A stretch of DNA of 64,000 nucleotides from Rhodospirillaceae bacterium (GTDB taxonomy: Bacteria > Pseudomonadota > Alphaproteobacteria > GCA-2731375). The DNA lies in contig JABJKS010000106.1 in NCBI GenBank assembly GCA_018660265.1, forward strand, positions 1,144-65,143. Direction: 5' to 3'. Below the pieces are notes generated by a model. It saw only the letters and a list, made by a program, of their open reading frames with translations. It made no database searches and had not been told where the DNA came from. Made by a program: the position numbers and the translations under genes. Below are positions 1,122-40,997 of this stretch, in pieces (the first letter of the stretch is position 1; each line of letters starts with the position of its first letter).

Positions 1122-2642
1122 ATGAGCGACTCATTTTTCCAGGCCCGAGACCAGGCAATCCCTTATCCCAGCCGCCCGGTACCCCTTTCCCATCCCACAC
1201 ACCTTTATGTGGTTGGCCGGCTGCATGGCCTCGACCCGGTTGCGATGGATGGGGCCCCGGCTGCCCCGGTTGCCAGGGTATTGGAATTGGGTTGCGGGGC
1301 GGGGGGCAACCTGTTGCCTATGGCGGCGTCTTTGCCTGGCGTGGAATTCGTCGGTGTCGATTTGTCCGGTCCGCAGATCGATTTGGCCCGTGTCGCAGCG
1401 GTAACCGCAGGCATAAATAACGTTGAATTTCTTGCCGGTGATGCCCTCTCGGCACTGGATGGGCGCGGAGATCTATCCTTTGACTACATAATTTTGCATG
1501 GCCTCTATTCCTGGGTTTCCGCTGCGGTACAGGATGCCCTATTGCCCTTGTGCAGCAAATTTTTGTCCGACAACGGCATTATATATATCAGCTACAACAC
1601 CTACCCCGGCTGGCATGGGCGGGGTCTGATCCGCGATTTGATGTTGCGCGCCTGCGCTGATCTATCCGACCCGACAGAACGTGCCACGGCGGCACGCGGG
1701 GCCCTGGATCGATTGGTTGCGGCCTATGCCCAGCCCGATGATGCCTATGCCAACTTGTTGGCGGAGGAACAGCAACGCGTGGCGGCGTTAGAGGACGGTT
1801 TCCTGCTGCATGATTTATTGGAGGCGGAAAACCACCCCATCTATGTTGACGAATTTCTCCGGCGCGGGGCGGATGCAGGACTGCAATTTGTTTCTGAAAG
1901 CAACGTCGCGGCGTCCCGTGAGGAGAATTTTGCCCCCGGTGTGCGCCTGCATCTGTCCGCCATTGATGATTTGGTGCAGCGGGAACAAAATGTCGACTTT
2001 CTGTTGAACCGTAGTTTTCGCCAATCCGTATTGTGCAAAGCGGGCCACAATGTGCGGCGGCAGATTTCAGCTGAGTGGTTGTCGGGCCTGTATCTTGCCT
2101 CTCCCGTGCGGCCCCTGGGTCAACTGCCCGAGGGTGAACCAGGCGAGGCGTTCTTTGCCACGCCGGACGGTGGCCGCTTTGGCATGACCACGCCCAGCGC
2201 GATTTCAGCGCTCAATCACCTGGCCCTTGCCTGGCCGGACTTCATAGCCCTTGAGGATCTTGCCGCCAAGGTGGGTGATCCGGCTATCGTGGCGCAATTG
2301 GTGATCGATCTGTACCCTCGTAACTGGCTGGATTTGCTGCCCCTAGCCCCCGGTTTTGTCATGCTGCCGGGACCACGGCCAATGGTCACGCCCCTGGCGC
2401 GGGTGCAAATCGTGACGGGGGAGCATGTGACGGATTTGCGCCACCGCAGCGTATTGATCACGGATAGCTTCACCAGACAGCTCATCCCGCACCTGGATGG
2501 GCAAACCGATCGGGCGGATTTGCTGGCAGCGGTCGCCGGGTTCGAAATTAGCGGTCGTCCTCAAATTGCCAATGATGACCCGGAAGCCTTATTGGATGCA
2601 GCCCTGCATCAATTGGCGGAGCGCTGCCTGCTTGTCCAATAG
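1122..2642 (+). CDS. Class I SAM-dependent methyltransferase with a C-terminal methyltransferase regulatory domain
   Basis: A 506 aa protein with the glycine-rich SAM-binding motif VLELGCGAGGN followed by DLS, a type 12 Rossmann fold, and a long C-terminal extension typical of the roughly 500 aa methyltransferase-regulatory-domain family. Confidence 0.65.
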   Translation: MSDSFFQARDQAIPYPSRPVPLSHPTHLYVVGRLHGLDPVAMDGAPAAPVARVLELGCGAGGNLLPMAASLPGVEFVGVDLSGPQIDLARVAAVTAGINNVEFLAGDALSALDGRGDLSFDYIILHGLYSWVSAAVQDALLPLCSKFLSDNGIIYISYNTYPGWHGRGLIRDLMLRACADLSDPTERATAARGALDRLVAAYAQPDDAYANLLAEEQQRVAALEDGFLLHDLLEAENHPIYVDEFLRRGADAGLQFVSESNVAASREENFAPGVRLHLSAIDDLVQREQNVDFLLNRSFRQSVLCKAGHNVRRQISAEWLSGLYLASPVRPLGQLPEGEPGEAFFATPDGGRFGMTTPSAISALNHLALAWPDFIALEDLAAKVGDPAIVAQLVIDLYPRNWLDLLPLAPGFVMLPGPRPMVTPLARVQIVTGEHVTDLRHRSVLITDSFTRQLIPHLDGQTDRADLLAAVAGFEISGRPQIANDDPEALLDAALHQLAERCLLVQ

Positions 2643-2736
2643 GTTGGCCACAGGATATAAGGGCGCCAGACATTTTCAAATTGGGCAGATCGTAAAGGGT
2701 TTCGATCCAATGGAAATTAGAGGGCGGGGATGAATA

Positions 2737-3252
2737 GTGGACGTTGATTGGACCGAGGATAATTTTTCCGTATTGCGTGACTGGCAGGTGCGCCAGGTTG
2801 CTTACGTGCCCGATGCGGGCCATGCGGATTTGATCAATCGCTGTGATCAGGCCGATGATATGCGCCTGGTTCCCCTGACCACGGAGGAAGAGGGCATCGC
2901 CGTCCTTGGTGGTGCCTGGTTGGGTGACCAGCGGGGCGTATTGTTGATGCAATCATCCGGGGTCGGTAATTGCATCAACATGTTGTCCCTGGCCCGGGTC
3001 TGCCGCTTTCCCTTGTTGATGATGGTGACCATGCGCGGCCAGTGGGGGGAGTTCAATCCCTGGCAGGTGCCCATGGGGGCCTTGACGCCGACGGTTTTGG
3101 AGGGGGCGGGCAGCTTAGTGTTTCCGGTTGATGATCCGGCCAAAATGGGTGAGACGACGAACGCTGCGGCGCGTATGGTTTTCGAAGGCCCGACACAGGC
3201 TGCCGTATTGATCGGCCAGTCGGTGATTGGCGCCAAGAGCTTTGGGAAATAG
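2737..3252 (+). CDS. comD: TPP-dependent decarboxylase alpha subunit (sulfopyruvate or phosphonopyruvate decarboxylase ComD-like, TPP N-terminal domain); GTG start
   Basis: A 171 aa protein resembling the N-terminal pyrimidine-binding domain of split TPP enzymes. It lies immediately upstream of a beta subunit gene with a 3 nt gap. The SD-like sequence agggcgggga precedes the GTG start. Confidence 0.65.
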   Translation: MDVDWTEDNFSVLRDWQVRQVAYVPDAGHADLINRCDQADDMRLVPLTTEEEGIAVLGGAWLGDQRGVLLMQSSGVGNCINMLSLARVCRFPLLMMVTMRGQWGEFNPWQVPMGALTPTVLEGAGSLVFPVDDPAKMGETTNAAARMVFEGPTQAAVLIGQSVIGAKSFGK

Positions 3253-3255
3253 GTC

Positions 3256-3879
3256 ATGAATAGTACTTTAAATGGCACTTTGGATCGTAATCGGGCGGCG
3301 GACTATCCCTTGCGCAGACGAGAGGTGGTGGCGGATTTGCTGGCGGATCGCGGCGATATGCTGGTCGTCGCGGGCCTTGGCGCGCCGGTCTGGGATTGTA
3401 CGGCGGTGGAAGACCATCCCCTGAATTTTCCCCTGTGGGGTGCCATGGGCGGTGCTGCCGCTATGGGCCTGGGCCTGGCTATGGCCCAGCCGGAGCGTCG
3501 GGTCCTGGTGATTACCGGCGATGGTGAGATGTTGATGGGCCTGGGTGCGATGACCACCATTGGTTCGCAACAGCCCGAAAACCTGTCGGTCGTGGTCTGT
3601 GACAATGAACGTTATGGGGAAACGGGCATGCAGCTGACCCACACCGCCGGCAACCTGGATCTACCTGCCATGGCCCTGGCCGCCGGCTTTGCCTCTGCCG
3701 CTGCCGTCAGTTCCGACAATGAGTTTAAGGCAGCGCTTCCCGCTATTCGCAACGCCAAGGGACCCGGCTTTTGGTCCATTAAAATCAAGGCGGAAGATAA
3801 CCCCATCGGTGTCATGCCGCCCAAAGACGGTGTTACCCTGAAAGACCGCTTCCGCGCGGCGCTGTTAGGGGCAGCCTGA
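3256..3879 (+). CDS. comE: TPP-dependent decarboxylase beta subunit (sulfopyruvate or phosphonopyruvate decarboxylase ComE-like, TPP-binding domain)
   Basis: A 207 aa protein with a TPP-binding GDG-x(n)-N-type motif (ITGDGEMLMGLGAM...VVVCDNERYGETG). It is translationally coupled to the alpha subunit. Confidence 0.7.
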   Translation: MNSTLNGTLDRNRAADYPLRRREVVADLLADRGDMLVVAGLGAPVWDCTAVEDHPLNFPLWGAMGGAAAMGLGLAMAQPERRVLVITGDGEMLMGLGAMTTIGSQQPENLSVVVCDNERYGETGMQLTHTAGNLDLPAMALAAGFASAAAVSSDNEFKAALPAIRNAKGPGFWSIKIKAEDNPIGVMPPKDGVTLKDRFRAALLGAA

Positions 3880-3928
3880 ATATGCTCCAGGTGCGAAAAA
3901 CCTGACCGCTGGCCGATGCGACGACCGC
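3624..3928 (+). repeat. Direct repeat copy 1: the 3-prime 255 nt of the comE-like gene plus about 50 nt downstream, about 90 percent identical to 5073-5378
   Basis: Direct nucleotide comparison of 3641-3900 with 5081-5340. Homology starts at gggcatgcagct and continues past the stop codon. Confidence 0.8.
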
Positions 3929-3945
3929 GCTTGACCTCGGAGCGG

Positions 3946-4935
3946 TTAAACCGTAACGCGGTTCAGTATGGATTTTGCATCGTTAACTATTTCGTTGATG
4001 ATCTCAGCCGCCGGCTGAACCTTCCGCACCATCGACAGCCCTTGTCCCGCCCACATCGATAACGCTTCAATATTGCCTTCTGCATCAGGACCGGGCGTAT
4101 AACTCTGGTAGCGTAAAATTTCGCCACGAGACGGGGACCTGGCAATTACTTCGCCCTCGCCGGGACGATCACCACTCGGTGGCCTGCCTTCCGTCTCCCA
4201 CAGGTCAACCGTGCTATTACGCAGAACGCGATGCGGTGCGTCGGGCCACCCAACATTAAATAGATCATTGTGATGGGTCGTATCATTTTCGGATGCATCT
4301 AAAACACGCTGCTGGTAGTCGGGATGGATTTCGACTTCTTCGCTGGCAAGAAAACGGGTGCCAATCCAAGCGGCGGATGCGCCAAGTGCTAGAACTGCAG
4401 CCAGCCCCCGACCATCTGCAATGCCACCAGCCGCGATTACTGGAACATCACCGACTGCGTCGACGACAGCTGGCACCAACGGTAATGTCGCAACAGTTCC
4501 ACGGACGTGCCCGCCTGCTTCCCATCCCTGAGCGACGATTGCGTCAACACCACTGTCTACCGCTTTTCGCGCGGCTTCCGCATCCCCAACCGAATGCAAC
4601 ACAATTGCTCCGGCATCCTTTGCCTTCCTAATCAATGGCGTCGGGTCGCGCCAAAAAAAAGAAATGATCGGAACGCCTTCGTCCAAACAAGCGTCTAATA
4701 GTTTTTCCTGTGGGAAATCCATGTTCAAGTTTACGGCAAAAGGCTTTGCCGTGAGCGATTTGGTTTGACGAACAACTTTCCGAAGGTTCTCAACGTCTCC
4801 GCCCCATAATGGCAAAACGCCTAGACCACCGGCGTTGCTGACAGCCGCCGCTAACTTCGCTCCAACAGCTCCGCCCATTGGCGCTAACACAACGGGTAAT
4901 TCGACGCCAACGCATTCGCAAAAACTGGATGCCAT
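3946..4935 (-). CDS. Nitronate monooxygenase (NMO, 2-nitropropane dioxygenase, FMN-dependent TIM barrel) family
   Basis: A 329 aa protein with the LPVVLAPMGG N-terminal motif, a GGIADGRG flavin-binding region and the overall NMO architecture. It sits between the two copies of the comE tail repeat. Confidence 0.8.
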   Translation of the reverse strand: MASSFCECVGVELPVVLAPMGGAVGAKLAAAVSNAGGLGVLPLWGGDVENLRKVVRQTKSLTAKPFAVNLNMDFPQEKLLDACLDEGVPIISFFWRDPTPLIRKAKDAGAIVLHSVGDAEAARKAVDSGVDAIVAQGWEAGGHVRGTVATLPLVPAVVDAVGDVPVIAAGGIADGRGLAAVLALGASAAWIGTRFLASEEVEIHPDYQQRVLDASENDTTHHNDLFNVGWPDAPHRVLRNSTVDLWETEGRPPSGDRPGEGEVIARSPSRGEILRYQSYTPGPDAEGNIEALSMWAGQGLSMVRKVQPAAEIINEIVNDAKSILNRVTV

Positions 4936-5021
4936 TATCTATGTCCCCTTTGTCGTTTGAGCAATCTTAGCGTGCAATTTCCGTCGCGTCTGATTTTAGC
5001 ATGCGAATGTGAGAAGATCTC

Positions 5022-5075
5022 CTTGTGGCAAAAGCAGAACTGTATTCTGTTGCACCCAATATCTGCTGTAGGGGG
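5022..5075 (+). repeat. 55-bp junction repeat (X-repeat) copy 1
   Basis: cttgtggcaaaagcagaactgtattctgttgcacccaatatctgctgtaggggg is about 89 percent identical to 7378-7430. It contains a short hairpin, cagaa..ttctg. A comE-like fragment follows immediately. Confidence 0.7.
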
Positions 5076-5331
5076 CATGCAGCTAACCTATACCGCCGGC
5101 AACCTGGACCTACCCGCGATGGCCTTGGCCGCCGGCTTTGCCTCCGCCGCTGCCGTCAGCTCCGACAACGAGTTTAAGGCAGCGCTTCCCGCTATTCGCA
5201 GCGCCAAAGGCCCCGGTTTCTGGTCCATCAAGATCAGGGCGGAAGATAACCCCATCGGTGTCATGCCGCCAAACGACGGCGTCACCCTAAAAGACCGCTT
5301 CCGCGCGGCGCTGTTAGGGGCAGCTTGAAAA
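5073..5331 (+). pseudogene. Fragment encoding the C-terminal 83 aa of a ComE-like beta subunit, a paralogous remnant with no N-terminal TPP domain
   Basis: Encodes MQLTYTAGNLDLPAMALAAGFASAAAVSSDNEFKAALPAIRSAKGPGFWSIKIRAEDNPIGVMPPNDGVTLKDRFRAALLGAA, which is near-identical to the C-terminus of the 3256-3879 product. The upstream reading frame passes through the unrelated X-repeat. Confidence 0.7.
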
Positions 5332-5529
5332 TGCTCCAGGCGCAAGAAATCCGGCCGCTGGCCGGCGCGACGCCCAATCGTGCCATCGGATCATGTCGGC
5401 TCCATGTGGCCAAGCAGACAATATTCCAGGATGGGTGCGATGACTGCCTTTGACCCGACTCGGATCTTCATCAGCGGTCAATGGGCCGCGAAAATAGTTG
5501 AGAAATTACTTGTTACACAGGGACCCCTA

Positions 5530-7311
5530 TCATTGGTTGCCTTGCTGTTCGGGAAGCGGGCCGTCGTAGACCTCGCGGATTGGGTTTGTGTATTCGTGCC
5601 AAAGGGTTCCTTCACTCCCCGCGCGAAATATAAAGGGGATAGCCGTATCGCTGCTTTGGCGCACCTGCTCAAGTACCGCTTTCGCCCTGCCGATGTCGTT
5701 CAGTCGAACGCAAGCTCCAGCCAAAACGAGTTGGGCGCTGATCATCGTCGAATTTAGGTTGATCGACCTCTCGGCAGCTTCTTTCGCCCCTTCATAATCC
5801 CGATGAAACTGGCGCGATGCAGCTAATAACCACCAAAACATGTACTCGATCGGATCCCTTGGGCTCAGCCGGAATGCCAATTCGCAAAATTCAATACCCT
5901 TTTCGGTCTCGCCAAAAGCTGCGGTTGCATACCCATGCATAGCGTTTGCGAGCGCGGCGTTGGGGTTGAGCTCTATAGCGCGCTGCAGTAGGGGGCGAGC
6001 TTGACGGAACCGACCTAGCCACCAGCACGCAAAACCCACATCCGCCAAAACTGTGGGATCGTTCGGCCCGTGATGCAGCGCTTGTTCGCCATGTCGAAGG
6101 GACTCGCTGGCGGTCGTTTTGAAGTCATCTGTCCAGCCGTTGTAGGAGCGCCATGCCAAAATGTATGCTGACACCGCATGGCCGATCGCATAGTTGGGAT
6201 CGAGGTTCGTAGACCGCTTCGCGAACGGTTCAGCTTCGTCGATATCCTGACGGCGATAGTTCTGCAACAGCGTCTTTGCTCTAACAACGTTGCCCCAGGC
6301 ATCCAGGGCACCGGGCGGCTTACGGCTTAGAAAGCTGGCTTCCGCCATCAACAGGCGTGATTGCAGGGCACCCGCGATGCCCTGGGTCACCTCATCCTGC
6401 ACCGCGAAGATGTCATCCAGTACCCGATCATAGCGGTCGGCCCAGATGTGGTTACCGCTTTCGGCGTCAATGAACTGGGCCGTGACCCGAATGCGATTAC
6501 CGGCCTTGCGCACACTGCCCTCCAGCACATAGCGGACGCCAAGGTCTGCGGCGACTTTTCGCACATCAGGAGATTGGCCTTTGTAGGCGAAGGTAGAATT
6601 GCGGGCGATCACGAATAGGTCCGGCACGCTGGAAAGCAGGGTGATGATGTCCTCTGTCATGCCATCGGCGAAGAATTCCTGCTCGGGGTCACCAGACATA
6701 TTATCGAACGGTAACACCGCGATGGAGGGTTTATCGGGCAACGGCAGTGGCGCATTGATGACTGTCGGAACTTCTGCATCAAATGCAGAGGGCGCCCACT
6801 GCCAGACCCGCACGGATCGCTCAATGTTTTTCAGCTCCCGGTCACCACCATCAACAAATTCGGCCTCAATGCGGCCTTCGACACTGTCATGGGCGTTGCT
6901 TGAAATTGTAACGCAGCCAGTATCACAAATCTCTTGTAGTCGTGCCGAGATGTTGACACCATCGCCGAAGATATCGTCACTTTCGACAATCACGTCGCCG
7001 AGGTGAACGCCAATGCGGAAGCAGATAGCGTCATCATCCCCAATGCCAGAATTGCGGGTCGCCATACCTTCTTGAACAGCAACAACGCATTCGCTTGCCG
7101 CGACGACAGATGGAAACTCAAGCAGCAATCCATCGCCAGTCGTCTTGACGATGCGTCCACCGTGTTTGGCGATCAGTGGGTCAATATGTTCAGAACGGTG
7201 CGCATTCAAACGCCGTAAGGTGCCCGCTTCGTCGCGTCCCATGAGGCGCGAATAGCCAGCCACATCAGCCGACACGATTGCTGCTAATCTGCGTAGGGTT
7301 TTCTCCGTCAT
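5530..7311 (-). CDS. Class III adenylate/guanylate cyclase (CHD domain) fused to a TPR-repeat regulatory domain
   Basis: The N-terminus has LAAIVSADVAGYSRLMGRDE...GDGLLLEFPSVVAASECVVAVQ...RIGVHLGDVIVE, typical of a CHD cyclase. The C-terminal roughly 300 aa are helical TPR-like repeats. This is a common rhizobial CyaD-type architecture. Confidence 0.8.
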   Translation of the reverse strand: MTEKTLRRLAAIVSADVAGYSRLMGRDEAGTLRRLNAHRSEHIDPLIAKHGGRIVKTTGDGLLLEFPSVVAASECVVAVQEGMATRNSGIGDDDAICFRIGVHLGDVIVESDDIFGDGVNISARLQEICDTGCVTISSNAHDSVEGRIEAEFVDGGDRELKNIERSVRVWQWAPSAFDAEVPTVINAPLPLPDKPSIAVLPFDNMSGDPEQEFFADGMTEDIITLLSSVPDLFVIARNSTFAYKGQSPDVRKVAADLGVRYVLEGSVRKAGNRIRVTAQFIDAESGNHIWADRYDRVLDDIFAVQDEVTQGIAGALQSRLLMAEASFLSRKPPGALDAWGNVVRAKTLLQNYRRQDIDEAEPFAKRSTNLDPNYAIGHAVSAYILAWRSYNGWTDDFKTTASESLRHGEQALHHGPNDPTVLADVGFACWWLGRFRQARPLLQRAIELNPNAALANAMHGYATAAFGETEKGIEFCELAFRLSPRDPIEYMFWWLLAASRQFHRDYEGAKEAAERSINLNSTMISAQLVLAGACVRLNDIGRAKAVLEQVRQSSDTAIPFIFRAGSEGTLWHEYTNPIREVYDGPLPEQQGNQ

Positions 7312-7377
7312 GGCGGGTAGTGTAACGGCAAGTGTTCAGCTAATCCAAGCATGATAGATAAGTTGTTGCATGGTCGC

Positions 7378-7430
7378 TTATGGCACAAAGCAGAATTGTA
7401 TCCTGTTGCACCCAACGTCTGCTGTTGGGG
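7378..7430 (+). repeat. 55-bp junction repeat (X-repeat) copy 2
   Basis: cttatggcacaaagcagaattgtatcctgttgcacccaacgtctgctgttgggg. A fragment matching comE at 3298-3362 follows. Confidence 0.7.
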
Positions 7431-7435
7431 TCGAG

Positions 7436-7503
7436 GTGGACTATCGCTGTTAAGCCGGCGCTGGCCGGTGGTGGAGATGCTGGCGGATCGCGGCGCTATT
7501 TGC
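7436..7503 (+). pseudogene. Short fragment homologous to the 5-prime region of the comE-like gene
   Basis: ggactatc...ggtggtggagatgctggcggatcgcggcgctatttg aligns to 3298-3362 (ggactatc...ggtggtggcggatttgctggcggatcgcggcgatatg). Confidence 0.5.
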
Positions 7504-7518
7504 ATAGCCTGACGGGCC

Positions 7519-7962
7519 CTAAACGCCTGACGTGCGGCGTAGGGGTTCGAGGCGGAAGCTTAGGCGAACCCAGTTTTTCTGCAACCGGTCGCCGTCCATC
7601 AAATAGTGGGTGCGCAAGGCGGATATGTCGCGGTAGCAACGCTGTAAGGCTTCACCGTCGTTCATGGCACTGCTGCCACCGGCGATAAATAGAACATCCA
7701 CGACCTTTGCCGTTTACTCCACGCATTGTTGCAGCAGCATTTGCATATGGGCGCGTGTCCCGAAGGCACCCGGCGCAGCGCTTCGCATTCGTTGGCGCGG
7801 GCCCGCAAACCCGGGATCAGGTCGCGGGCCCGTTGGGGCATGACCTCAGAGCTTAGGTTCAGGTCAACTTCGTGGCTATGGTCCGCCCGGCATTGTCCCG
7901 TATTTCTAACCCCGCGACGGCAGTACCACCACGCCGGTGCCTTGGATCGATAGTTCATCATC
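7519..7962 (-). pseudogene. Degraded remnant of an acyl-CoA-dehydrogenase-like flavin monooxygenase: an N-terminal piece and a C-terminal piece, out of frame with each other
   Basis: The minus-strand ORFs encode LIPGLRARANECEALRRVPSGHAP, which is N-terminal-like, and VLFIAGGSSAMNDGEALQRCYRDISALRTHYLMD, which resembles the conserved C-terminal helix of ACAD-fold monooxygenases. There is no intact reading frame. Confidence 0.35.
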
Positions 7963-9060
7963 TTGCTGATGGGCCTTTTGGCTGATCTCTACACAATGGC
8001 GACCATCACCATCGATGAATTTATTGCTCACTTCGCCGTTGATATACAGCACGTCGCCTTCCGGGTTATGGCGGCGGATACGGGTTTTGTGGTTGGCCAG
8101 GAAACCGTCATCGCCCATCCAGTTGGTTAGGTGATGGGTCAGCCAGGAGACCCGCTCCGGCCCATAGTCATAGGCACCGGGGGCACCGACTTCGACTGCG
8201 AAATCGTTCTCCCAATGCACCCGCTCGGGGCAGTCGGGGATGTTAAAGCGGTTGGTAATGCCCAGGCCGGGATGTTTATGGATCTGTTGCCAGGCTAGTT
8301 TGTTGGCACGAATATAAAGCCCACCCCAACCTTGGGCATAGCAGATGAAGCCCGTGGCGGTCATGGGGCCTTTGAGCATCGTGGGTAACTTGTCGCCGAC
8401 GTTGACGTCTTCATAATAACGGGTTTCGCCACCCCGGATTTCTTCCTTGGCATAATGGCGATAGATATCCACCAGCTCTTCCTCGGTATAGCGCAGCTGG
8501 CCTTTTTTTGCGGCGTCATACTTGGTGCCGGCTTCCCGCGCCTTGTCGCGTTCCGTGCGGAAGCACCAGCTGTCGGCGCTGCAGATATTGTCGCCGTCCT
8601 GGTTATAGAATTCCACATGATAGACCTGCTCGATCGCGCGGCCTGAAAATTGTGTGTCGTGGGGGATCAGCTCCTTCAACCAGGCTTCACAATGGACTTC
8701 GTCATTGCGGTTTAGATGCTTATGCCAGTTCCAATCAGCCCCGGCCCACATGGCATGGATGCCGGGCAATCCGCCAACATAGCCGGAGATGATGCGGTTG
8801 GTCGCGAACAGAAATGAGGGCAAGGCGATCAGGCCGTCATATTTGGTCTTCGCGGCATATTCGGGATCACACCACAGGGGATTGTCGTCACCGATGCCGT
8901 GGGCATAGTGGCGGATGTTGTCCCGGGTTGCCTCGTAACACCACGGCTCCGGCATATTCTCGATCTTCACGCCGACGCGTTTTTGTAGATCTTCCAGGCC
9001 CCGTTCGGAGATTTTGGGGAACCGTCCCCCACTTTCGCTGGCTTGGCTTTCGTCGCTCAT
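7906..9060 (-). CDS. Double hot-dog (FAS1-like N-terminal plus MaoC-like C-terminal) acyl dehydratase/hydratase
   Basis: A 384 aa protein. It is a clear paralogue of 38660-39811, sharing RDxIRHxAxGxGDDNPLWxDxxYAAK and later blocks. It lies downstream of a CoA ligase in the same orientation. Confidence 0.7.
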   Translation of the reverse strand: MSDESQASESGGRFPKISERGLEDLQKRVGVKIENMPEPWCYEATRDNIRHYAHGIGDDNPLWCDPEYAAKTKYDGLIALPSFLFATNRIISGYVGGLPGIHAMWAGADWNWHKHLNRNDEVHCEAWLKELIPHDTQFSGRAIEQVYHVEFYNQDGDNICSADSWCFRTERDKAREAGTKYDAAKKGQLRYTEEELVDIYRHYAKEEIRGGETRYYEDVNVGDKLPTMLKGPMTATGFICYAQGWGGLYIRANKLAWQQIHKHPGLGITNRFNIPDCPERVHWENDFAVEVGAPGAYDYGPERVSWLTHHLTNWMGDDGFLANHKTRIRRHNPEGDVLYINGEVSNKFIDGDGRHCVEISQKAHQQDDELSIQGTGVVVLPSRG

Positions 9061-9063
9061 TGT

Positions 9064-10611
9064 CTACTCTCCTCTCGCGGCCGCTTCGCGGTCCCGCAGT
9101 ATTTTACGATTAACTTTGCCCGCCGGCGTCTTTGGCAACTCGTCCGCGAAGGCGACGATGCGGGGATATTCGTGACGGCTCAAATTCTCTTGAGCAAATA
9201 ATTGAAGTTCCTTGATAAAGCTGTCATCACCGTCCCGGTCGCTGATGATGAAAGCCTTGACGACGAGGCCCCGGATGTCGTCGGGAACACCGATCACGGC
9301 GGCTTCCAACACATCCGCATGTTTTAAAAGGGTATCTTCAATTTCCATTGCCGACATGGTCCAGCCGGCGGAAATGATGACGTCGTCGGCCCGCCCGCCG
9401 TGAAAAAAATAACCTTCGGCATCAATGTGCCCGCGATCCTTGGTGGGGAACCAGCCGTCCCGGCGCATGACCATGATCTCGCCCACTTCGTCCGGGGCGC
9501 AATGTTCACCCTTGGGGTTCAGAATGGCGACGTCCTGGCCGGGGATGGGCATGCCCAAAGATCCCAGTTTCGGCGGCAAATCCTCGGCCCCCGGATAACT
9601 ACCCAGCAGGACGCCAACTTCTGTTGTGCCGTAGAAACTGCACGGATACTGGCCAAACGTGGCCTTGGCCCATTCCGCCGTGTCCGTATCCATGGGTTCG
9701 CCGGTAAAGCTGACTTTTTCCAGGTTGAAGTTGTAATTGCCGGAGGTGCCGGCGTTTTTCATCATCCTGAAATGGGTTGCCGCCGCCGACAGATTGCTGA
9801 TCTCAAACTCTTCCAGGGCTGCCATCAACCGCTCCGGATCGAACTTGCCGGCATAAGAGGCCGTGGTAATGCCCAGAGCATGGGGCGACAGGGTGCCGTG
9901 CCAAAGACCATGCCCCCACGCGGTGGAGGAGGGGCACATGAAACGGTCGCCGGGCCTGGTGCCGGTGCCGTACAGGGCGGCCAGCATGACCGTGACAATG
10001 GATTGGTGGCGATGCTTCACGGCATCGGGCAATTCCCGCGTGGTGCCGGAAGTATATTGATACATCGCCATGTCACGGCCGGCGGTGGTCATTTCAAAGG
10101 CCGTATCGTAATTTTCAAGCATGGCCATGAAGTCATCATCTGCGATGGCCGTGTCGCAACCCGCATCTGCGGCCAAATCCGTCTTTTCAGGGGCCAACAG
10201 CAGGAATTTCGGCTGGCAGTCCCCAACCCGTAAACGCAACGCATCGGGGCCGAACAGGGTGAACATGGGCACCGCCACACAGCCGGCCTTCATGGCACCG
10301 TACAGGGCAATATAAAAATGCAATGACGGCTCTACCATCAGGGCAACCCGTTCGCCCGGCGCGATGTCCTGGGCGCGAAGATAGTTGGCGTAACGTCCCG
10401 ACCAGTCGGATATTTCGCCGAACGTGTAGCTTTCCGAACCACCTTCCGCCAAGGCAATCCGCACCGCCACGCGGTCCCGGGGGTGGCGTTCGATACATTC
10501 GTGGGCAATGTTCAGGGCCTCCCGATCGCCATCGAACAATTCCCAAAGTCTTTCTTTGGAACAGTGCTTTTGAGCGTCGGCGAATGAGGTGTAGTCGGTC
10601 AGCAGTGGCAT
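9064..10611 (-). CDS. AMP-dependent synthetase/ligase (acyl-CoA synthetase family)
   Basis: Contains the AMP-binding motif YTSGTTRELP (the YTSGTTG-type box) and a C-terminal PKTPAGKVNRK lysine motif. The start is placed at the ATG at 10611 (MPLLTDY). The ORF-track start at 10671 is a TTG that lies inside the operator motif. Confidence 0.8.
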   Translation of the reverse strand: MPLLTDYTSFADAQKHCSKERLWELFDGDREALNIAHECIERHPRDRVAVRIALAEGGSESYTFGEISDWSGRYANYLRAQDIAPGERVALMVEPSLHFYIALYGAMKAGCVAVPMFTLFGPDALRLRVGDCQPKFLLLAPEKTDLAADAGCDTAIADDDFMAMLENYDTAFEMTTAGRDMAMYQYTSGTTRELPDAVKHRHQSIVTVMLAALYGTGTRPGDRFMCPSSTAWGHGLWHGTLSPHALGITTASYAGKFDPERLMAALEEFEISNLSAAATHFRMMKNAGTSGNYNFNLEKVSFTGEPMDTDTAEWAKATFGQYPCSFYGTTEVGVLLGSYPGAEDLPPKLGSLGMPIPGQDVAILNPKGEHCAPDEVGEIMVMRRDGWFPTKDRGHIDAEGYFFHGGRADDVIISAGWTMSAMEIEDTLLKHADVLEAAVIGVPDDIRGLVVKAFIISDRDGDDSFIKELQLFAQENLSRHEYPRIVAFADELPKTPAGKVNRKILRDREAAARGE

Positions 10612-10663
10612 GGTGGGAACCCGAGTTGCGGCGAAGACAGAGAATTTTAGGATATCTCCAATA

Positions 10664-10698
10664 ATTGTCAATACGCAATAATATTGTCTATAGACAAT
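10664..10698. promoter_or_regulatory. Operator-like 35-bp motif, site 1: ATTGTCAATACGCAATAATATTGTCTATAGACAAT
   Basis: It contains an 18-bp perfect palindrome, TATTGTCTATAGACAATA. The site is centred in the divergent intergenic region between the CoA ligase and the thioesterase genes. It matches 40952-40986 at 30 of 35 positions. Confidence 0.6.
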
Positions 10699-19199: not shown

Positions 19200-21251
19200 A
19201 TGGCCTGGATCATCGGCGTTGATGTCGGCGGAACTTTTACGGATTTTCACGTTTATGACGATGAAAGCGGTGAGCTGCGCATCCATAAGACCCCTTCGAC
19301 ACCGGATAACCCGGCCAGGGCGGTCCTGAACGGCATTAATGAGCTGTCTGATGATATGAAGCTGGCGGATGTCAGCCGCCTATCCCACGGCACTACCGTG
19401 GCCACCAATGCCCTGATCCAGCGCCGTGGCGGCAAAGTGGCCTTGCTGGTCACCGAAGGGTTTCGTGATCTGCTGGAAATTGGCCGGCAAATCCGCCCCC
19501 ACATGTTCAGTTTTCAACAGGATCACCCAACCCCCCTGGTGCCGCGAGAGAGGCGTTTGGAGGTGGCCGAACGTATTCTTTTTGACGGCTCGGTTCATCG
19601 GCCTTTAACTCAAGCCGCAATCGATGGTGCCGTCGTCGCCGTACGGGAAAGCGGTGCCGATTGCCTGGCGATTTGTTTGATATTCGGCTTCATCAATCCC
19701 GATCACGAGAGGCGATTGCGCGACGCCCTTACATCGGCCCTGCCGGATCTACAGATCTCTATCTCATCAGAGGTGCAGCCGGAGTTTCGCGAGTACGAGC
19801 GTCTGTCCACGACCGTCCTGAATGCCTTTCTACAGCCAATCATGGGCAGCTATCTGACCGAATTCGAGGATCAACTGACCAAGTTGATGCCCAATGCAGA
19901 CCTGGGCATCAACCAATCCGCCGGCGGCCTGATGACACCCAGCCGGGCCCGGCAGCTGCCCATTCGCACGGCCCTATCGGGGCCGGCGGCAGGCGTCGTC
20001 GGGGCGGTTGATGCCGCGCGCTCCGCCGATCTGACCAACGTTATCACGCTTGATATGGGCGGTACCTCGGCCGATGTCTGCCTGATCCGCGATTTAGAGG
20101 CTGATGTGGCCTATGACCGCTGGATTGAAGGCTACCCGGTGCGCCTGGCCAGTGTGGATGTGAACGCGGTTGGCGCGGGGGGTGGTTCCATCGCCTGGTT
20201 TGAACGGGATGGTCTGATGAAGGTGGGACCACAAAGTGCAGGCGCGGTGCCTGGCCCGGCCTGTTATGGTCAGGGCGGTACGGAGCCGACGGTTTCGGAC
20301 GCCAATCTGGTGCTGGGCCGGTTATCACCGAAAGGTCTGTTGGGCGGCGGTATGGCTCTTGACGTTGACGCCGCGCGCGCCTCCCTGACACCAGCCGCAG
20401 AACGCCTGGGCATGACAATTGAGCGCACGGCGCATGGTATTCTAGGTATTGTTGCTGCCAATATGGTCCGCGCCATCCGAACTATATCCGTCGAACGGGG
20501 CCATGATCCCCGTGATTTTGTCTTGCTGCCGTTCGGCGGTGCTGGGCCGTTGCATGCAGTTGATGTGGCCCGTGCGCTTGGTATCAACCGGATGTTGGTG
20601 CCCATGGCACCGGGCATTCTGTGCGCTCGTGGATTGGTGGTGTCCGATTTGCGGGAAGGTTTCGTTATTAGCCGGGTGATGCCGTTGGTGGCAGACGCCA
20701 TGGGCGACATCACGGCCAATCTTGTGGATTTGGGACGGCAAGCAGCAGCTTGGTTCGCGCAGGCGGGCATTGATGCGGACGACCGGCAAACCATGTTCAG
20801 CCTGGATATGCGCTATATCGGGCAAAATTACGAATTGCAGGTGGACCTTGATGATGCCCAGGCCCAGGTGCCCGCGCTTTCGGTCCTGGCGGAAAAATTC
20901 TTCGCCGCTCATGAACGCAGCTATGGCTATCATAATCCCGAAGACCCGGTGGAAGTTGTGAACCTGCGGGTTACGGCCATTGGTCGCTTGGCAGGTCCAG
21001 GTGATGGGGGCTGGCAGGCGATGGCAGCGCCGGGTACCAAGGCGCAGGCGGATACCACCCGACAGGTCTGGTTCAGTGGTGATACCTCGGTAGAGACACC
21101 GGTCTATGATCGGGCCAAGTTGCTGCCGGGTCATGAATTTGACGGTCCTGCGGTAATAGAGCAACTGGATGCCACCACGATTTTGGCCCCAGGGGATCAA
21201 TGCCGCATTGACCAAGCCGGCAATCTATATGTGGAGCTAAGCCATGAATAG
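19200..21251 (+). CDS. hyuA: Hydantoinase/oxoprolinase family A subunit (HyuA-like; N-methylhydantoinase A, caprolactamase alpha or 5-oxoprolinase A family)
   Basis: The N-terminus MAWIIGVDVGGTFTDFHVYDDESG is the hallmark Hydant_A_N motif. 683 aa. Confidence 0.85.
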   Translation: MAWIIGVDVGGTFTDFHVYDDESGELRIHKTPSTPDNPARAVLNGINELSDDMKLADVSRLSHGTTVATNALIQRRGGKVALLVTEGFRDLLEIGRQIRPHMFSFQQDHPTPLVPRERRLEVAERILFDGSVHRPLTQAAIDGAVVAVRESGADCLAICLIFGFINPDHERRLRDALTSALPDLQISISSEVQPEFREYERLSTTVLNAFLQPIMGSYLTEFEDQLTKLMPNADLGINQSAGGLMTPSRARQLPIRTALSGPAAGVVGAVDAARSADLTNVITLDMGGTSADVCLIRDLEADVAYDRWIEGYPVRLASVDVNAVGAGGGSIAWFERDGLMKVGPQSAGAVPGPACYGQGGTEPTVSDANLVLGRLSPKGLLGGGMALDVDAARASLTPAAERLGMTIERTAHGILGIVAANMVRAIRTISVERGHDPRDFVLLPFGGAGPLHAVDVARALGINRMLVPMAPGILCARGLVVSDLREGFVISRVMPLVADAMGDITANLVDLGRQAAAWFAQAGIDADDRQTMFSLDMRYIGQNYELQVDLDDAQAQVPALSVLAEKFFAAHERSYGYHNPEDPVEVVNLRVTAIGRLAGPGDGGWQAMAAPGTKAQADTTRQVWFSGDTSVETPVYDRAKLLPGHEFDGPAVIEQLDATTILAPGDQCRIDQAGNLYVELSHE

Positions 21252-36647: not shown

Positions 36648-38663
36648 TTATTCAAAATGTCCGGCGATGCCAACAACGCCTGCCGCCTTTAACGAGTCTA
36701 TCTCATCATCCGGCAGGGAGAGAACCCGGCGCAAGACGAAATCATCGCCCTCCCCCAACAGCGGTGCCGTCTTGCGCAGGCCGGGGCGATGGCTGTTAAC
36801 CCGCCAAGGGGCAGCGACCAGGGCCTCATCCCCCGTGTAGGGGTGGGTGGAGGATATCCAACCGGAACAGTCCGCAAATACTGCCGAATTGTCGGTCTCA
36901 TCCAGTTCCAACAAATCTGCCCAGTGCCCGCCTAATGCGGTGCAGCGCTCAACAATATCAGCCCGGCTTAAACCCTCGAAATTTTCATCAGCGGCATCGC
37001 AGGGCACGGAGACGGCAATGAAAGATCCGTCTTTTGCCGTGACGATGGCATCACGGGTCGCGAGCGGTGGTGTCGGGGTTGCCGCCAATGTCGCGGCGGC
37101 CTCAATTTGGGAGACGTCAAAGGCCCGGCCCGTGCCGTCTTCTCCCGCAGCCAGGACGCCCGCCAGGAGGCCCATAGCCCCGAAGGCAGCTGCGTTGGGG
37201 TCGGAGAGGGAGAATGTGGGGGAGCCTAGGAATTCGCCGTCCTTGGTGATCAAATCCTCTGCCCCGCCCAGGGCGCTGAGCACCAGGCCGTAAGATCGCA
37301 GCTTTTCCACGGCTGAGCCTCGGCCGGGCCCGCTCATGGACATTTGTACCAAGGTCGGGTTGGCCTGAGCAAGATCGTCGGGACCCAGGCCAAGGCGCTC
37401 CATTGTGCCGACGGTGAAGTTCTCGATCAACAGATCGGACACGGCGGCCAGTTCCAGGGCCGTCTTGCGACCGTCGGGATGTTTCAGGTCAAGGGCCAGG
37501 CCGGTTTTGTTGCGGTTCAGGCTATGGAAATACAGGGAAGATTCGATGCGGGCCTTTTCCGGCATTTTTTTGCGCAGGGCTTCCAGGCCACGGGTGCGGT
37601 AGAGGTCAAAACGCCCAGGCGCTTCCATCTTGATGACTTCGGCTCCAAGGTCAGCCAGGATTTGACCGACCATGGGCCCAGACCAGACCCAGCACAATTC
37701 CAGACAACGCAGGCCCGCCAGGGGCGAACCGGCGACATCGTCATGTACACGCCGCTGCCGGTCCCGCGCTGCACCACCCGTCAGGGGTTGGATTTGGAAC
37801 GGCATCGCCGGTATGTCGTCAACAATGAAATTGTCGCGAAAAACGTCCCGGGCGGCAGCCTCCGCCTGACTATAGACCGGCGCGATCACAGCACCTTCGG
37901 CCAGGCCCCGTTGCAGCAACTCGTCCCGGCCCAAAGCCGACAAGGTGCCTTCCAGCAACCGGTCCGCCGCCGCACTGTCCCGCGCCAACACGAAAGGGTC
38001 CTGATAGGCTTCACCTTTGGCCCAGTCAGGATCGCCAACGGCTTTGCGGATGTTGTGCCAATCCCGCCGCGACCGTCCCAATAAGGCCACATAGCCATCT
38101 TTACAGGCGTAGAACCCCATGGGAAAGATGCCGCCGTGCTCAACGCACAGGCGACCATTGCGTCGCCAGGAGCGGACCATTTCTTCTGGCCCGCCGGAAT
38201 TTTGCAGGGAGAAGGAGCGCATAATATCGGCGGCGGAGACATCGTAGCGAACAGGCTTGCGCGCTTTGCCGTTGCCATTGCCATTTCGTTGCCGCCAGAC
38301 TTCAGCCAATGCCAGGATCACGCCATAGATACCGCACCATTTTTCGGGCATGTCGCTGGGCAGGGGGACGCCGGGGCCCCCTTTGTGACCAATCACGGCC
38401 GCGGCCCCTGATACAGCCGAGGCCAAGGCACCGGTGCCCGGATGCCCGACCTGGTAATCCCAAAGACGAATGACACAGTTGGCATCAGATGCCGTATCCC
38501 CGCCGACGACGGCAATATCCGTATCAGCCACGGCGGCATCGTCCCCGCCACCCAACATTCGCAGCCATTGCCGTGCGTAGGAGGTTGAGCGGTTGCTGGC
38601 AGTTACCGTAATTTCTGCTGCCGCTGAAAGGGGAACCTGTCTTGTTTTGCAGTCCTGGCTCAT
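36648..38663 (-). CDS. CoA-transferase family III (CaiB/BaiF-like), double-length 671 aa form
   Basis: The C-terminal half contains LRCLELCWVWSGPMVGQILADLGAEVIKMEAPGRFD, the CoA-transferase III N-terminal motif. The N-terminal half is divergent but of similar size. Confidence 0.7.
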   Translation of the reverse strand: MSQDCKTRQVPLSAAAEITVTASNRSTSYARQWLRMLGGGDDAAVADTDIAVVGGDTASDANCVIRLWDYQVGHPGTGALASAVSGAAAVIGHKGGPGVPLPSDMPEKWCGIYGVILALAEVWRQRNGNGNGKARKPVRYDVSAADIMRSFSLQNSGGPEEMVRSWRRNGRLCVEHGGIFPMGFYACKDGYVALLGRSRRDWHNIRKAVGDPDWAKGEAYQDPFVLARDSAAADRLLEGTLSALGRDELLQRGLAEGAVIAPVYSQAEAAARDVFRDNFIVDDIPAMPFQIQPLTGGAARDRQRRVHDDVAGSPLAGLRCLELCWVWSGPMVGQILADLGAEVIKMEAPGRFDLYRTRGLEALRKKMPEKARIESSLYFHSLNRNKTGLALDLKHPDGRKTALELAAVSDLLIENFTVGTMERLGLGPDDLAQANPTLVQMSMSGPGRGSAVEKLRSYGLVLSALGGAEDLITKDGEFLGSPTFSLSDPNAAAFGAMGLLAGVLAAGEDGTGRAFDVSQIEAAATLAATPTPPLATRDAIVTAKDGSFIAVSVPCDAADENFEGLSRADIVERCTALGGHWADLLELDETDNSAVFADCSGWISSTHPYTGDEALVAAPWRVNSHRPGLRKTAPLLGEGDDFVLRRVLSLPDDEIDSLKAAGVVGIAGHFE

Positions 38664-39811: not shown

Positions 39812-39839
39812 GTCGTCACCTGCCTATTTTCTCCACCGG

Positions 39840-40889: not shown

Positions 40890-40951
40890 TTTGGTGCTTC
40901 CTCTATTTGCATCAACCTGACAGCAGCAAAATCATTATGGAACTGGACATA

Positions 40952-40986
40952 GTTGTCAATGTGCAATACTGTTGTCTATAGACAAT
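40952..40986. promoter_or_regulatory. Operator-like 35-bp motif, site 2: GTTGTCAATGTGCAATACTGTTGTCTATAGACAAT
   Basis: It has the 14-bp perfect palindrome TTGTCTATAGACAA at its core. It lies 12 to 46 nt upstream of the iclR start and inside the divergent promoter region of the LLM operon. Confidence 0.6.
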
Positions 40987-40997
40987 GGAATGACATA

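Follow-up and report, generated by a model that had tools for sequence, protein, structure and literature searches.

A single gene for a nitronate monooxygenase (NMO)-family protein lies between two copies of the 3′ end of its neighbour, a comE-like gene, and the question is how such an arrangement came about. The DNA analysed, a stretch of 64,000 nt from a Rhodospirillaceae bacterium (hereafter the window), had previously been interpreted without database searches, and this sequence-only reading described a duplication of about 300 bp of the comE tail, bracketing one NMO gene on the opposite strand. Self-comparison of the window by blastn bore out both observations: the two copies form an ungapped direct repeat of 303 nt with 88.8% identity (34 mismatches, E 7.6e-110), and the NMO-family ORF is the sole gene between them. 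The coordinates reported earlier agree with ours apart from the 3′ ends of the copies, which were 2-3 nt off. A repeat search likewise returned one two-copy direct family (3624-3923 and 5073-5372, 89% identity, spacing 1449 nt), and the 5′ boundary of the repeat was sharp in a MAFFT alignment. The repeat comprises the final 256 nt of the comE-like ORF, stop codon included, and a 47-nt downstream tail (named T hereafter); the identical runs common to both copies reach 31, 33 and 35 nt, the last being the longest. The features of the locus are collected in Table 1.

Table 1. Features of the comE-like locus, with positions in the window
Feature	Position	Strand	Description
comD-like gene	2737-3252	+	Alpha subunit of a two-subunit TPP-dependent decarboxylase; Pfam TPP_enzyme_N; syntenic in relatives
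comE-like gene, intact	3256-3879	+	Beta subunit, 207 aa; Pfam TPP_enzyme_C
Repeat copy 1	3624-3926	+	comE nt 369-624 plus tail T1 (3880-3926)
NMO/FabK-family FMN oxidoreductase gene	3946-4935	-	329 aa; Pfam NMO; cargo of the putatively younger module
Motif M	5022-5074	+	About 53-54 nt; directly abuts the 5′ edge of copy 2
Repeat copy 2	5073-5375	+	Orphan comE 3′ fragment, codons 124-207 (5073-5328), plus tail T2 (5329-5375)
Class III adenylate/guanylate cyclase-TPR protein gene	5530-7311	-	593 aa; Pfam Guanylate_cyc and TPR; cargo of the putatively older module
Motif M′	7377-7430	+	Twin of M, 87% identical
Decayed orphan comE 5′ fragment	7435-7499	+	Matches comE nt 42-104 (window 3297-3359)
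HsaA-like (acyl-CoA-dehydrogenase-fold) monooxygenase pseudogene, internally deleted	7519-7840	-	Directly downstream of FAS1_DH
FAS1_DH/MaoC-like hydratase gene	7906-9060	-	Conserved right flank, convergent with comE; Pfam

Co-assembly of strains typically yields repeats of about 90% identity, and an assembler that chained two strain variants of the comE tail could create such a pair. The identical layout was, however, found in at least 15 contigs assembled independently of one another (NCBI MAGs, ENA metaSPAdes and MEGAHIT assemblies, and one JGI contig), which agree at 99.9-100% identity and come from different samples and three assemblers, and unique sequence, the NMO gene and M, separates the copies. 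There is therefore next to no chance that the repeat is an assembly artefact. Across the contigs compared, the locus is essentially clonal and copy 2 is without any variant.

Judged by profile scores, the decarboxylase pair is best described as ComDE-like. The best NCBIfam match of the comD-like product is sulfopyruvate decarboxylase alpha, at 103.8 bits under a curated cut-off of 147.95, and the comE-like product reaches 140.7 bits against sulfopy_beta (cut-off 221.5); both subunits score below these equivalog cut-offs, which are those of TIGR03845 and TIGR03846. The intact ComE has the same length as its homologues at 86-93% amino-acid identity. The NMO product scores 191.3 bits against the Pfam NMO family (PF03060, cut-off 28) and 218 bits against the FabK equivalog, short of the cut-off of 453, and we would assign it at the family level. 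Tail T1 contains a terminator-like hairpin in the minus-strand reading. The HsaA-like pseudogene matches the C-terminal end of Pfam Acyl-CoA_dh_2 (E 8.8e-5) and positions 326-376 of 383 in NCBIfam HsaA (E 2.3e-5); its N-terminal part is tentative, with a weak match to positions 3-26 (E 0.08).

Comparison with relatives delimits what has been added. The comE-like gene and the FAS1_DH hydratase gene converge in five related species; where ComE is 86-93% identical the order is MT-comD-comE, followed by convergent FAS1_DH-AMP-binding, and FAS1_DH itself has 86-90% amino-acid identity and conserved synteny in the relatives L010-L013 and L090. The gap between comE and FAS1_DH measures 85-210 nt (L010, L012, L013) and otherwise carries a vapBC-type toxin-antitoxin (PhdYeFM/PIN) module or remnants of one (L011, L090, L093, L010, L012). 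Neither the NMO gene, the cyclase gene, M, nor a repeat or extra comE piece was found at this locus in the relatives examined, and window positions 3880-7905 therefore represent a lineage-specific insert of 4.0 kb. The base composition of this insert is not distinct from that of its surroundings. The absence of NMO from every related genome examined, none of which carries two intact comE paralogues, upholds the earlier suggestion of a gene-sized insertion or recombination, with the repeat as its footprint. The accompanying expectation that comE in relatives would be followed directly by the sequence flanking position 5378 proved wrong, as convergent FAS1_DH or a toxin-antitoxin module follows instead. 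Since this flank, which leads into the cyclase gene, does not follow comE in the relatives, it is itself part of a probably older insertion. Among uncultured marine Rhodospirillaceae-like bacteria of one clade, the comE/FAS1_DH intergenic spot is thus a hot spot of gain and loss, holding toxin-antitoxin modules in some species and NMO and the cyclase gene in this lineage.

Within the insert, two nested modules have the same design, in which a comE 3′ piece with a 47-nt tail T is combined with one accessory gene, encoded on the other strand, and with motif M. No similarity between the two cargos was detected by blastn. M is present in only two copies in the window (up to three mismatches allowed, 0 expected). 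At joint J1 (5072-5075) the end of M meets comE nt 369 with a 2-nt GG overlap, at a GCATGC palindrome, and at joint J2 the end of M′ meets comE at about nt 34-42, any overlap being no longer recognisable after decay. In both cases it is the right end of M that meets comE, the two positions agreeing to within 0-6 nt. The comE fragment beyond J2 aligns with comE by local blastn at 48 of 65 positions with a 2-nt indel (E 8e-8), including a 33-nt core at 88%; when aligned together with the relatives it is frameshifted, and is 75% identical to the intact comE and 72% to that of L010. M, M′ and this second, decayed comE fragment, none of which figured in the earlier interpretation, show what appears to be a nested two-step history.

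M shows partial dyad symmetry. Several identities for the motif were considered and rejected. A dispersed repeat or mobile-element end does not fit a sequence with two copies in the window, none in the loci fetched from outside this species and a single metagenome match that is the same locus. As to an RNA or structured element, no Rfam match was obtained in 2600-9200 and the DNA fold was no better than that of shuffled sequences (z -1.1). An NMO-linked regulatory site was likewise discarded, M being missing upstream of six NMO orthologue loci.

The way in which the two repeat copies differ bears on the source of copy 2. The 252 coding nucleotides differ at 24 sites, of which 20 are third codon positions, giving dN 0.022, dS 0.40 and a dN/dS of 0.054, which falls inside the range of true orthologue pairs (0.03-0.14). 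Derived synonymous changes are split evenly between the copies (7 versus 6), and copy 2 extends over 84 codons without indel or stop. If copy 2 had evolved neutrally after an in-situ duplication, about 62% of the changes would be expected to be non-synonymous, against 4 of 24 observed (P about 8e-6), and decay of copy 2 in place was rejected on these grounds. As the differences are almost all synonymous, copy 2 must have diverged inside a working gene and been truncated recently. All four amino-acid replacements lie on the copy-2 branch, and two of them affect residues invariant in every homologue inspected (H to Y in QLTHTAG and K to N in MPPKDG). Copy 2 is accordingly a C-terminal fragment corresponding to ComE residues 124-207, as had been recognised before. 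Of the two explanations offered earlier for the roughly 10% divergence, a diverged functional copy brought in by recombination is favoured and an old event followed by decay is not. The proposal that this copy came from a paralogue stands only in part, in that recombination with a diverged copy is retained but no full-length paralogue was found; tblastn revealed no extra comE paralogues within the window, and the copy-2-type tail occurs in no database protein. The donor may instead have been an orthologue from another lineage. The non-coding tails T1 and T2 have 37 of their 47 nucleotides in common (21% diverged), and M and M′ are 13% diverged. Similar divergence of T and of M/M′, with unrelated cargo between them, is as expected if these are two allelic versions of one locus. 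A comparison of the 5′ part of the intact comE with its tail, against relatives, gave a mixed picture of mosaicism, dS hinting at a grouping of the 5′ part with copy 2 and raw distances giving no such hint.

The low dN/dS and the open frame without stop or indel could also be read as the mark of a living small gene, i.e. an 83-codon ORF (ATG at 5077) encoding a stand-alone C-terminal TPP-domain peptide under purifying selection, with no recent transfer; gene callers do give an ORF of 83 or 118 aa here. However, the four replacements all fall on the copy-2 branch, two at invariant residues, and a possible ribosome-binding G-run stops 1 nt before the ATG. Furthermore, the cyclase and NMO genes on either side are encoded on the strand opposite to that of the ORF, no promoter-like site was found upstream, and no stand-alone homologue was found among the loci of relatives. 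We consider a functional peptide very improbable.

Searches for the source of the insert and for its precursor returned the finished arrangement only. Among the genomes and contigs examined, none was of the donor type (comE-T-NMO-M in a different setting) or of the pre-insertion type (a full comE that has the copy-2 tail and is followed by the cyclase gene), and every contig with the exact ComE, NMO or cyclase protein shows the finished layout. The closest NMO orthologues (84% amino-acid identity) were rejected as donors, being not beside comE, without M and in other contexts; nucleotide homology to them (81-82%) is limited to 3941-4946 and ends at the gene ends. The nearest cyclase homologue is only 64% identical and lies in an unrelated context beside a DDE transposase. 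A plasmid or phage origin of the insert was also discarded, with only weak cyclase-family matches on rhizobial replicons and none in phages.

Taken together, we propose, with a probability of roughly 0.55, that the locus arose by serial, homology-anchored additive integration of DNA from relatives about 10% diverged, either through a single crossover with a circularised 1,449-bp fragment or through an HFIR-like event, each integration leaving an orphan comE piece. DNA from a relative, with a comE about 10% different (dS 0.40), would have carried the comE tail, T, NMO and M in that order, and would have recombined with the resident comE via the shared tail. Homology being one-sided, DNA would have been added, not swapped. 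By the simplest route, a fragment of 1,449 bp (one repeat plus 3927-5072) would have been circularised via an illegitimate joint between the end of M and comE nt 369, with the 2-nt overlap, and the circle would have entered through a single RecA-type (Campbell-type) crossover, so that the 303-bp homologous segment was left as a direct repeat on either side of the insert. One tail would then complete the working comE, leaving its counterpart orphaned further downstream. The product would be no different had linear DNA entered from one end in an HFIR-like event. The cyclase gene would have arrived earlier in a similar way, with the joint between M′ and comE nt about 34-42, and the orphan comE piece of that event would since have been reduced to 65 nt and decayed. 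No present-day function of the repeat itself is implied.

The geometry of the locus matches this proposal. The insert and one repeat make up a closed unit of 1,449 nt with a single non-collinear joint (5072-5075), and the repeats flank 3927-5072, as is expected when a circularised fragment enters by a single crossover. By the minimal pairing lengths of RecA, identical runs of 31, 33 and 35 nt suffice for a RecA-type crossover. Moreover, the second joint, beside an internally deleted pseudogene, shows what look like repeated events and deletions at one spot. Besides the finished layout of every such contig and the differing settings of the closest NMO orthologues, further points count against additive integration: simple random breakage would not predict the common M end at both joints, the overlap at J1 is 2 nt, below the 3-10 bp usual for HFIR, and recombination across 11% divergence is inefficient. 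Alternatively, an already composite locus may have been imported en bloc.

Other origins would account for the M end common to both joints. If the M-comE joint formed once and was then copied, as in a tandem duplication by unequal or illegitimate sister-chromatid exchange, the shared end follows, and such a duplication likewise gives an end-to-start joint and direct repeats; the cargo of one unit would then have been replaced and the stranded copy would have decayed. Deletions are indeed evident at the locus, in the HsaA-like pseudogene and in the toxin-antitoxin remnants of relatives. Yet decay predicts mostly non-synonymous changes, indels and stops, at odds with the substitution pattern of copy 2 described above, and the two units carry dissimilar cargos, so that a duplication in situ seems unlikely. 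A variant in which a comE-T-NMO-M unit was later overwritten by allelic recombination with a diverged strain would still need inter-lineage recombination, together with a deletion whose left end fell within about 6 nt of the older joint.

The shared end would also be explained if M ended a small, integrase-less element that uses the comE 3′ end as attachment site and brings a replacement tail, two such elements lying in tandem with the recombinase elsewhere or lost. Integrative elements classically supply a gene tail that keeps the target intact, and they accrete in tandem; the partial dyad symmetry of M would suit such an element. We nevertheless give this site-specific origin little credence. 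No integrase, transposase or relaxase was called within about 10 kb by Pfam, in agreement with the sequence-only reading, which had noted no transposase or integrase. One joint falls at nt 369 of comE and the other at about nt 34-42, which speaks against a fixed target core. The repeat is 303 nt at 89% and not a short identical core. Leaving aside this locus, M was found nowhere else in the window, the 119 fetched loci or the metagenome scan, its hairpin is no better than shuffled sequence, and neither terminal inverted repeats nor target duplications are present. A further reading, which we hold to be decidedly improbable, takes the right end of M as a specific, reusable DNA end and the modules as integrase-free, homology-anchored cassettes, moved between related genomes by RecA crossover within the neighbouring gene and stacking behind it. 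Here a single accessory gene would undergo cleavage or nicking at M and then be linked to part of the adjacent housekeeping gene; if true, cassette-like gene accretion outside integrons would have a route that has so far gone unrecognised.

Under additive integration, the repeat is the scar of a recombinational gene addition, an instructive but ordinary kind of genome scar. The locus would offer a clean natural example of accessory genes added beside a conserved gene without dedicated mobile-element machinery, with the orphan tail as the fossil of another comE allele, that of the donor or of the recipient. It also lets the divergence between lineages (dS about 0.4) be told apart from the age of the event, which the four orphan-branch replacements put at about 0.01-0.02 substitutions per site. 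Current understanding is unchanged by it; its use lies in providing a worked case and a caution to annotators about the 83-codon pseudo-ORF.

Among known systems, some can be set aside. An insertion sequence, MITE or transposon was rejected, there being no inverted repeat at the module ends and M occurring only twice, both times at this locus; an integron gene cassette was rejected too, with no attC-like core in M by eye, a fold not above shuffles and no integrase. Genomic islands at gene 3′ ends, with their att duplication, resemble the locus in that a direct repeat of the gene's 3′ end stands at both borders and the target gene is intact, but here there is neither an integrase nor a short identical att core, and the position of the joint in comE varies.

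Parallels are also found in T6SS effector and Rhs loci, where orphaned remnants of earlier copies lie behind an intact gene, pushed downstream by successive incoming modules, an arrangement attributed to HFIR-like displacement (Kirchberger et al. 2017, Vibrio cholerae, PMC5361080). Similarly, an intact comE is followed by orphans at 5073-5328 and 7435-7499, the incoming modules presumably being anchored in the conserved upstream part. In the Rhs and T6SS arrays, the displaced 3′ ends are differing toxin domains with immunity genes, kept by selection, whereas unlike in those and CDI arrays the orphans here are TPP-domain pieces with homology to the working gene, which seem to be of no use and alternate with unrelated cargo, the NMO-family enzyme and the cyclase. 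In canonical HFIR recipient DNA is replaced, insertion and deletion going together, and the microhomology amounts to 3-10 bp (de Vries & Wackernagel 2002; Prudhomme et al. 2002, summarised in PMC3240628). The locus shares with it a homologous anchor on one side only (the comE tail and T), an illegitimate joint at the other end and the addition of foreign DNA beside a conserved gene; the right side (M and the NMO flank) is without counterpart in recipient-type sequence. It departs from HFIR in that the recipient tail has been kept and duplicated, not deleted, and possibly in its overlap, 2 nt at J1.

Another close match is with E. coli, in which linear DNA with one-sided homology was mostly circularised and integrated by a single crossover, the part of the homologous segment that was duplicated measuring 109-950 bp (Amarir-Bouhram et al. 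2011, PMC3240628). As in that Campbell-type integration, the insert is flanked by a duplicated homologous segment, 303 bp in this case, with one illegitimate closure joint inside, and a dedicated recombinase is unneeded. Unlike in E. coli, the circle is deduced from its product, not seen, and the present locus records what would be a natural event between lineages about 10% diverged, with an older event nested beside it.

A single long direct repeat was found in the first 9 kb (3624-3923 versus 5073-5372, 89% identity, 1449 nt from start to start), and self-blastn set its limits at 3624-3926 (copy 1) and 5073-5375 (copy 2), i.e. 303 nt aligned without gaps at 88.8% identity (34 mismatches, E 7.6e-110). 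These searches confirmed the sequence-only reading of a direct repeat bracketing a single NMO gene, which was right to within 2-3 nt. Copy 1 consists of the final 256 nt of the comE-like ORF plus 47 nt beyond it (tail T, named T1 and T2 in the two copies). The best NCBIfam matches of this ORF and its upstream partner were the two subunits of sulfopyruvate decarboxylase; because both fell under the curated cut-offs, only 'ComDE-like' is a fair name for the pair. Tail T carries a terminator-like hairpin reading on the minus strand, which looks like the terminator of whichever gene converges on comE. At least 15 contigs, assembled with different programs from different samples, carry this layout at 99.9-100% identity, which excludes an assembly artefact; the source annotation of the cyclase protein gives the organism as an uncultured Rhodospirillaceae bacterium. 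Elsewhere in the window, two distant genes share a 95-nt inverted match (20223-20317 versus 33966-33872, 75% identity, E 2e-10), probably paralogous coding sequence.

Features of the comE-like locus and of the DNA lying between it and FAS1_DH
Feature	Coordinates	Strand	Description
comE-like ORF	3256-3879	+	207 codons; Pfam TPP_enzyme_C domain; preceded by a 171-codon TPP_enzyme_N ORF
NMO-family ORF	3946-4935	-	329 codons; strong Pfam NMO match; sole gene between the repeat copies
Motif M	5022-5074		53 nt; directly 5′ of copy 2
Class III cyclase-TPR gene	5530-7311	-	593 codons
Motif M′	7377-7430		87% identical to M; on the far side of the cyclase gene
Putative HsaA-like (acyl-CoA-dehydrogenase-fold) monooxygenase pseudogene, internally deleted	7519-7840	-	directly 3′ of FAS1_DH

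A scan of one genome per species, together with ComE homologue look-ups, yielded six related loci with ComE 86-93% identical (L010-L014, L090/L091 and L093). Wherever the contig extends far enough, the gene order is that of the window, namely methyltransferase, comD and comE, then convergent FAS1_DH (a conserved hydratase gene) and AMP-binding, then 4HBT and Lactamase_B. The distance from the comE stop to the FAS1_DH stop is ~85 nt in L010, 125 nt in L013, 210 nt in L012 and ~700 nt in L011 and L090, where the gap holds a PhdYeFM-antitoxin/PIN-toxin pair (vapBC-like; L011 7060-7700, L090 1580-2196). Of this module, L010 (10621-10704) and L012 (10619-10826) have kept no more than the final codons or both ends, L093 has a weak PIN match immediately 3′ of comE (719-937), and L013 has no such module between comE and FAS1_DH. 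Because the relatives hold at this spot a toxin-antitoxin module, its remnants or nothing, the intergenic region undergoes repeated turnover, with different cargo gained and lost across the clade. NMO, the cyclase gene, motif M and a second comE piece were found in none of the six loci, and nucleotide homology between window and relatives ends at the comE stop codon and restarts at the FAS1_DH stop, so window 3880-7905 is a 4.0-kb lineage-specific insert. The sequence-only reading had pictured relatives without NMO in which comE is followed directly by the flank at 5378; NMO is indeed absent from all of them, but that junction is not what they show.

In the L011 MAG, codon 61 of the comE orthologue (6385-7008), W in homologues, is an in-frame stop that follows ...HPLNFPL and points either to a pseudogene or to a sequencing error. 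A second FAS1_DH paralogue (38660-39811) is clustered in the window with CoA-transferase, luciferase-like monooxygenase and IclR regulator genes (38660-41798), and a 38-nt motif just upstream of this IclR gene (40949-40986) is 87% identical to one in the AMP-binding/4HBT divergent promoter region (10661-10698). At the corresponding place of the first cluster, an IclR gene is present in L090 and absent from the window.

From left to right, the window reads comE with T1, NMO, M joined to comE from nt 369 to its end with T2, the cyclase gene, M′ joined to comE nt ~42-104, gene remnants, and FAS1_DH on the minus strand. The last comE piece, a 65-nt stretch starting 4 nt after M′, matches comE nt 42-104 (48 of 65 positions identical, 2-nt indel, local-search E 8e-8; 33-nt core at 88%); aligned with the relatives, it is frameshifted and 75% identical to comE1, the intact gene, and 72% to L010. 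Among the remnants, a C-terminal HsaA-like match (Pfam E 8.8e-5; NCBIfam HsaA positions 326-376 of 383, E 2.3e-5) and a weak match to the first 26 residues (E 0.08) together indicate an internally deleted pseudogene, solid in its C-terminal and weak in its N-terminal part, within which gene callers list a 60-aa ORF. The NMO and cyclase cargos have no mutual relationship, whereas the module borders, the comE tail with T at the left and M at the right, show homology and a comparable degree of divergence, so that the modules look like two alleles of a single locus that differ in cargo and now stand in tandem.

Duplication in situ followed by decay would leave a different record in the copies. Across their 252 common coding nt the copies differ at 24 sites, of which 20 are third codon positions (dN 0.022, dS 0.40, dN/dS 0.054; the range for orthologue pairs over the same segment is 0.03-0.14), and neither an indel nor a stop occurs across 84 codons. 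For a dead duplicate, ~62% of the differences are expected to be non-synonymous, and four or fewer out of 24 has P ~8e-6. This pattern contradicts in-situ duplication with decay and means that the bulk of the 10% divergence built up while both copies belonged to working genes; copy 2 was orphaned only recently and has since evolved under relaxed constraint for roughly 0.01-0.02 substitutions per site. When polarised with six outgroups, seven derived synonymous changes fell to copy 1, six to copy 2 and six were ambiguous, and all four amino-acid replacements lay on the copy-2 branch, including H to Y in QLTHTAG and K to N in MPPKDG, residues invariant in every homologue inspected. Such replacements also make it unlikely that copy 2 is a living 83-codon gene, as do a G-run that stops 1 nt before the ATG, its position antisense to the neighbours and the lack of a promoter-like site upstream. 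An open frame on the plus strand (4957-5328, 123 codons), starting with TTG at 4957 and running through M into copy 2, is listed as an 83- or 118-aa hypothetical protein depending on the gene caller, and is most likely a pseudo-ORF that will spread in annotations. The nearest relative of each copy is the other (p 0.095, versus at least 0.143 to any other sequence), which places both source lineages within this clade; T1 and T2 differ at 10/47 positions, in line with the split seen in the coding part. The lineage-specific insert and the working-gene mode of divergence support the earlier view of an insertion or recombination footprint with a diverged copy. That view was incomplete, as it had not taken in M, M′ and the second comE piece, and the footprint appears to be the younger of two nested events in a 4-kb island at a hot spot.

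The insert and one homologous segment form a 1,449-nt unit with one non-collinear joint (J1, the end of M against comE nt 369), the geometry that results when a circular molecule enters the chromosome through one homologous crossover. In E. coli, linear DNA homologous at one end was mostly circularised and then integrated by recA-dependent single crossover, duplicating 109-950 bp of the homologous segment, whereas true homology-facilitated illegitimate recombination (HFIR) couples insertion to deletion at 3-10 bp of microhomology (PMC3240628). Crossover substrates would be available in stretches of 31, 33 and 35 nt over which the copies are identical. At J1 itself the two sides overlap by 2 nt (GG), at a palindromic hexamer, GCATGC, that is native to comE (5072-5080, 3620-3632); that a restriction-type cut set this fragment end is pure speculation. 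We therefore favour an additive integration, anchored by homology, of DNA that came from a relative ~10% diverged, in its simplest variant by Campbell-type entry of a circularised fragment, or alternatively by a linear HFIR-like event. The older joint, M′ against comE nt ~34-42, would then mark an earlier event of the same kind, whose orphan was deleted and decayed. Three observations contradict a site-specific integrative element: there is no integrase or other recombinase gene near the modules, the two events have their joints at different positions in comE, and a short identical core is lacking.

Neither a donor-type nor a pre-insertion genome came to light; all contigs with the exact ComE, NMO or cyclase protein have the finished layout, and the population at the locus is nearly clonal. 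When comE1 was examined for mosaicism (5′ part against tail), dS hinted at a grouping of the 5′ part with copy 2, and raw distances did not. The nearest NMO orthologues (84% aa) lie in other contexts, with homology only across the NMO gene (3941-4946); for the cyclase, the closest homologue is 64% identical. L099, from a distant genome, has an NMO orthologue (76% aa) in divergent orientation beside two genes with homology to the central and TPR portions of the cyclase (1816-4744; window 6373-6713 matches L099 2625-2965 at 65%), and a functional link between the two cargo genes is possible on account of this neighbourhood.

The right end of M is the same in both illegitimate joints, to within 0-6 nt, which is not predicted by random breakage; a one-off joint followed by deletion would require the deletion endpoint to fall on the old joint. 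A preferred DNA end at M, and with it a mobilisation process of greater specificity, is possible, this coincidence being the one observation in its favour. By searches for further copies, M is not a dispersed repeat; it has neither an Rfam match nor a significant fold, and it does not occur upstream of NMO orthologues. Only the recurrent M end could lead to something new here, the locus being otherwise a further example of an already known type of recombination scar. The closest described natural pattern is the serial displacement known from Rhs and T6SS effector loci, where each new module is anchored in the conserved upstream region and pushes pieces of the previous gene downstream (PMC5361080).
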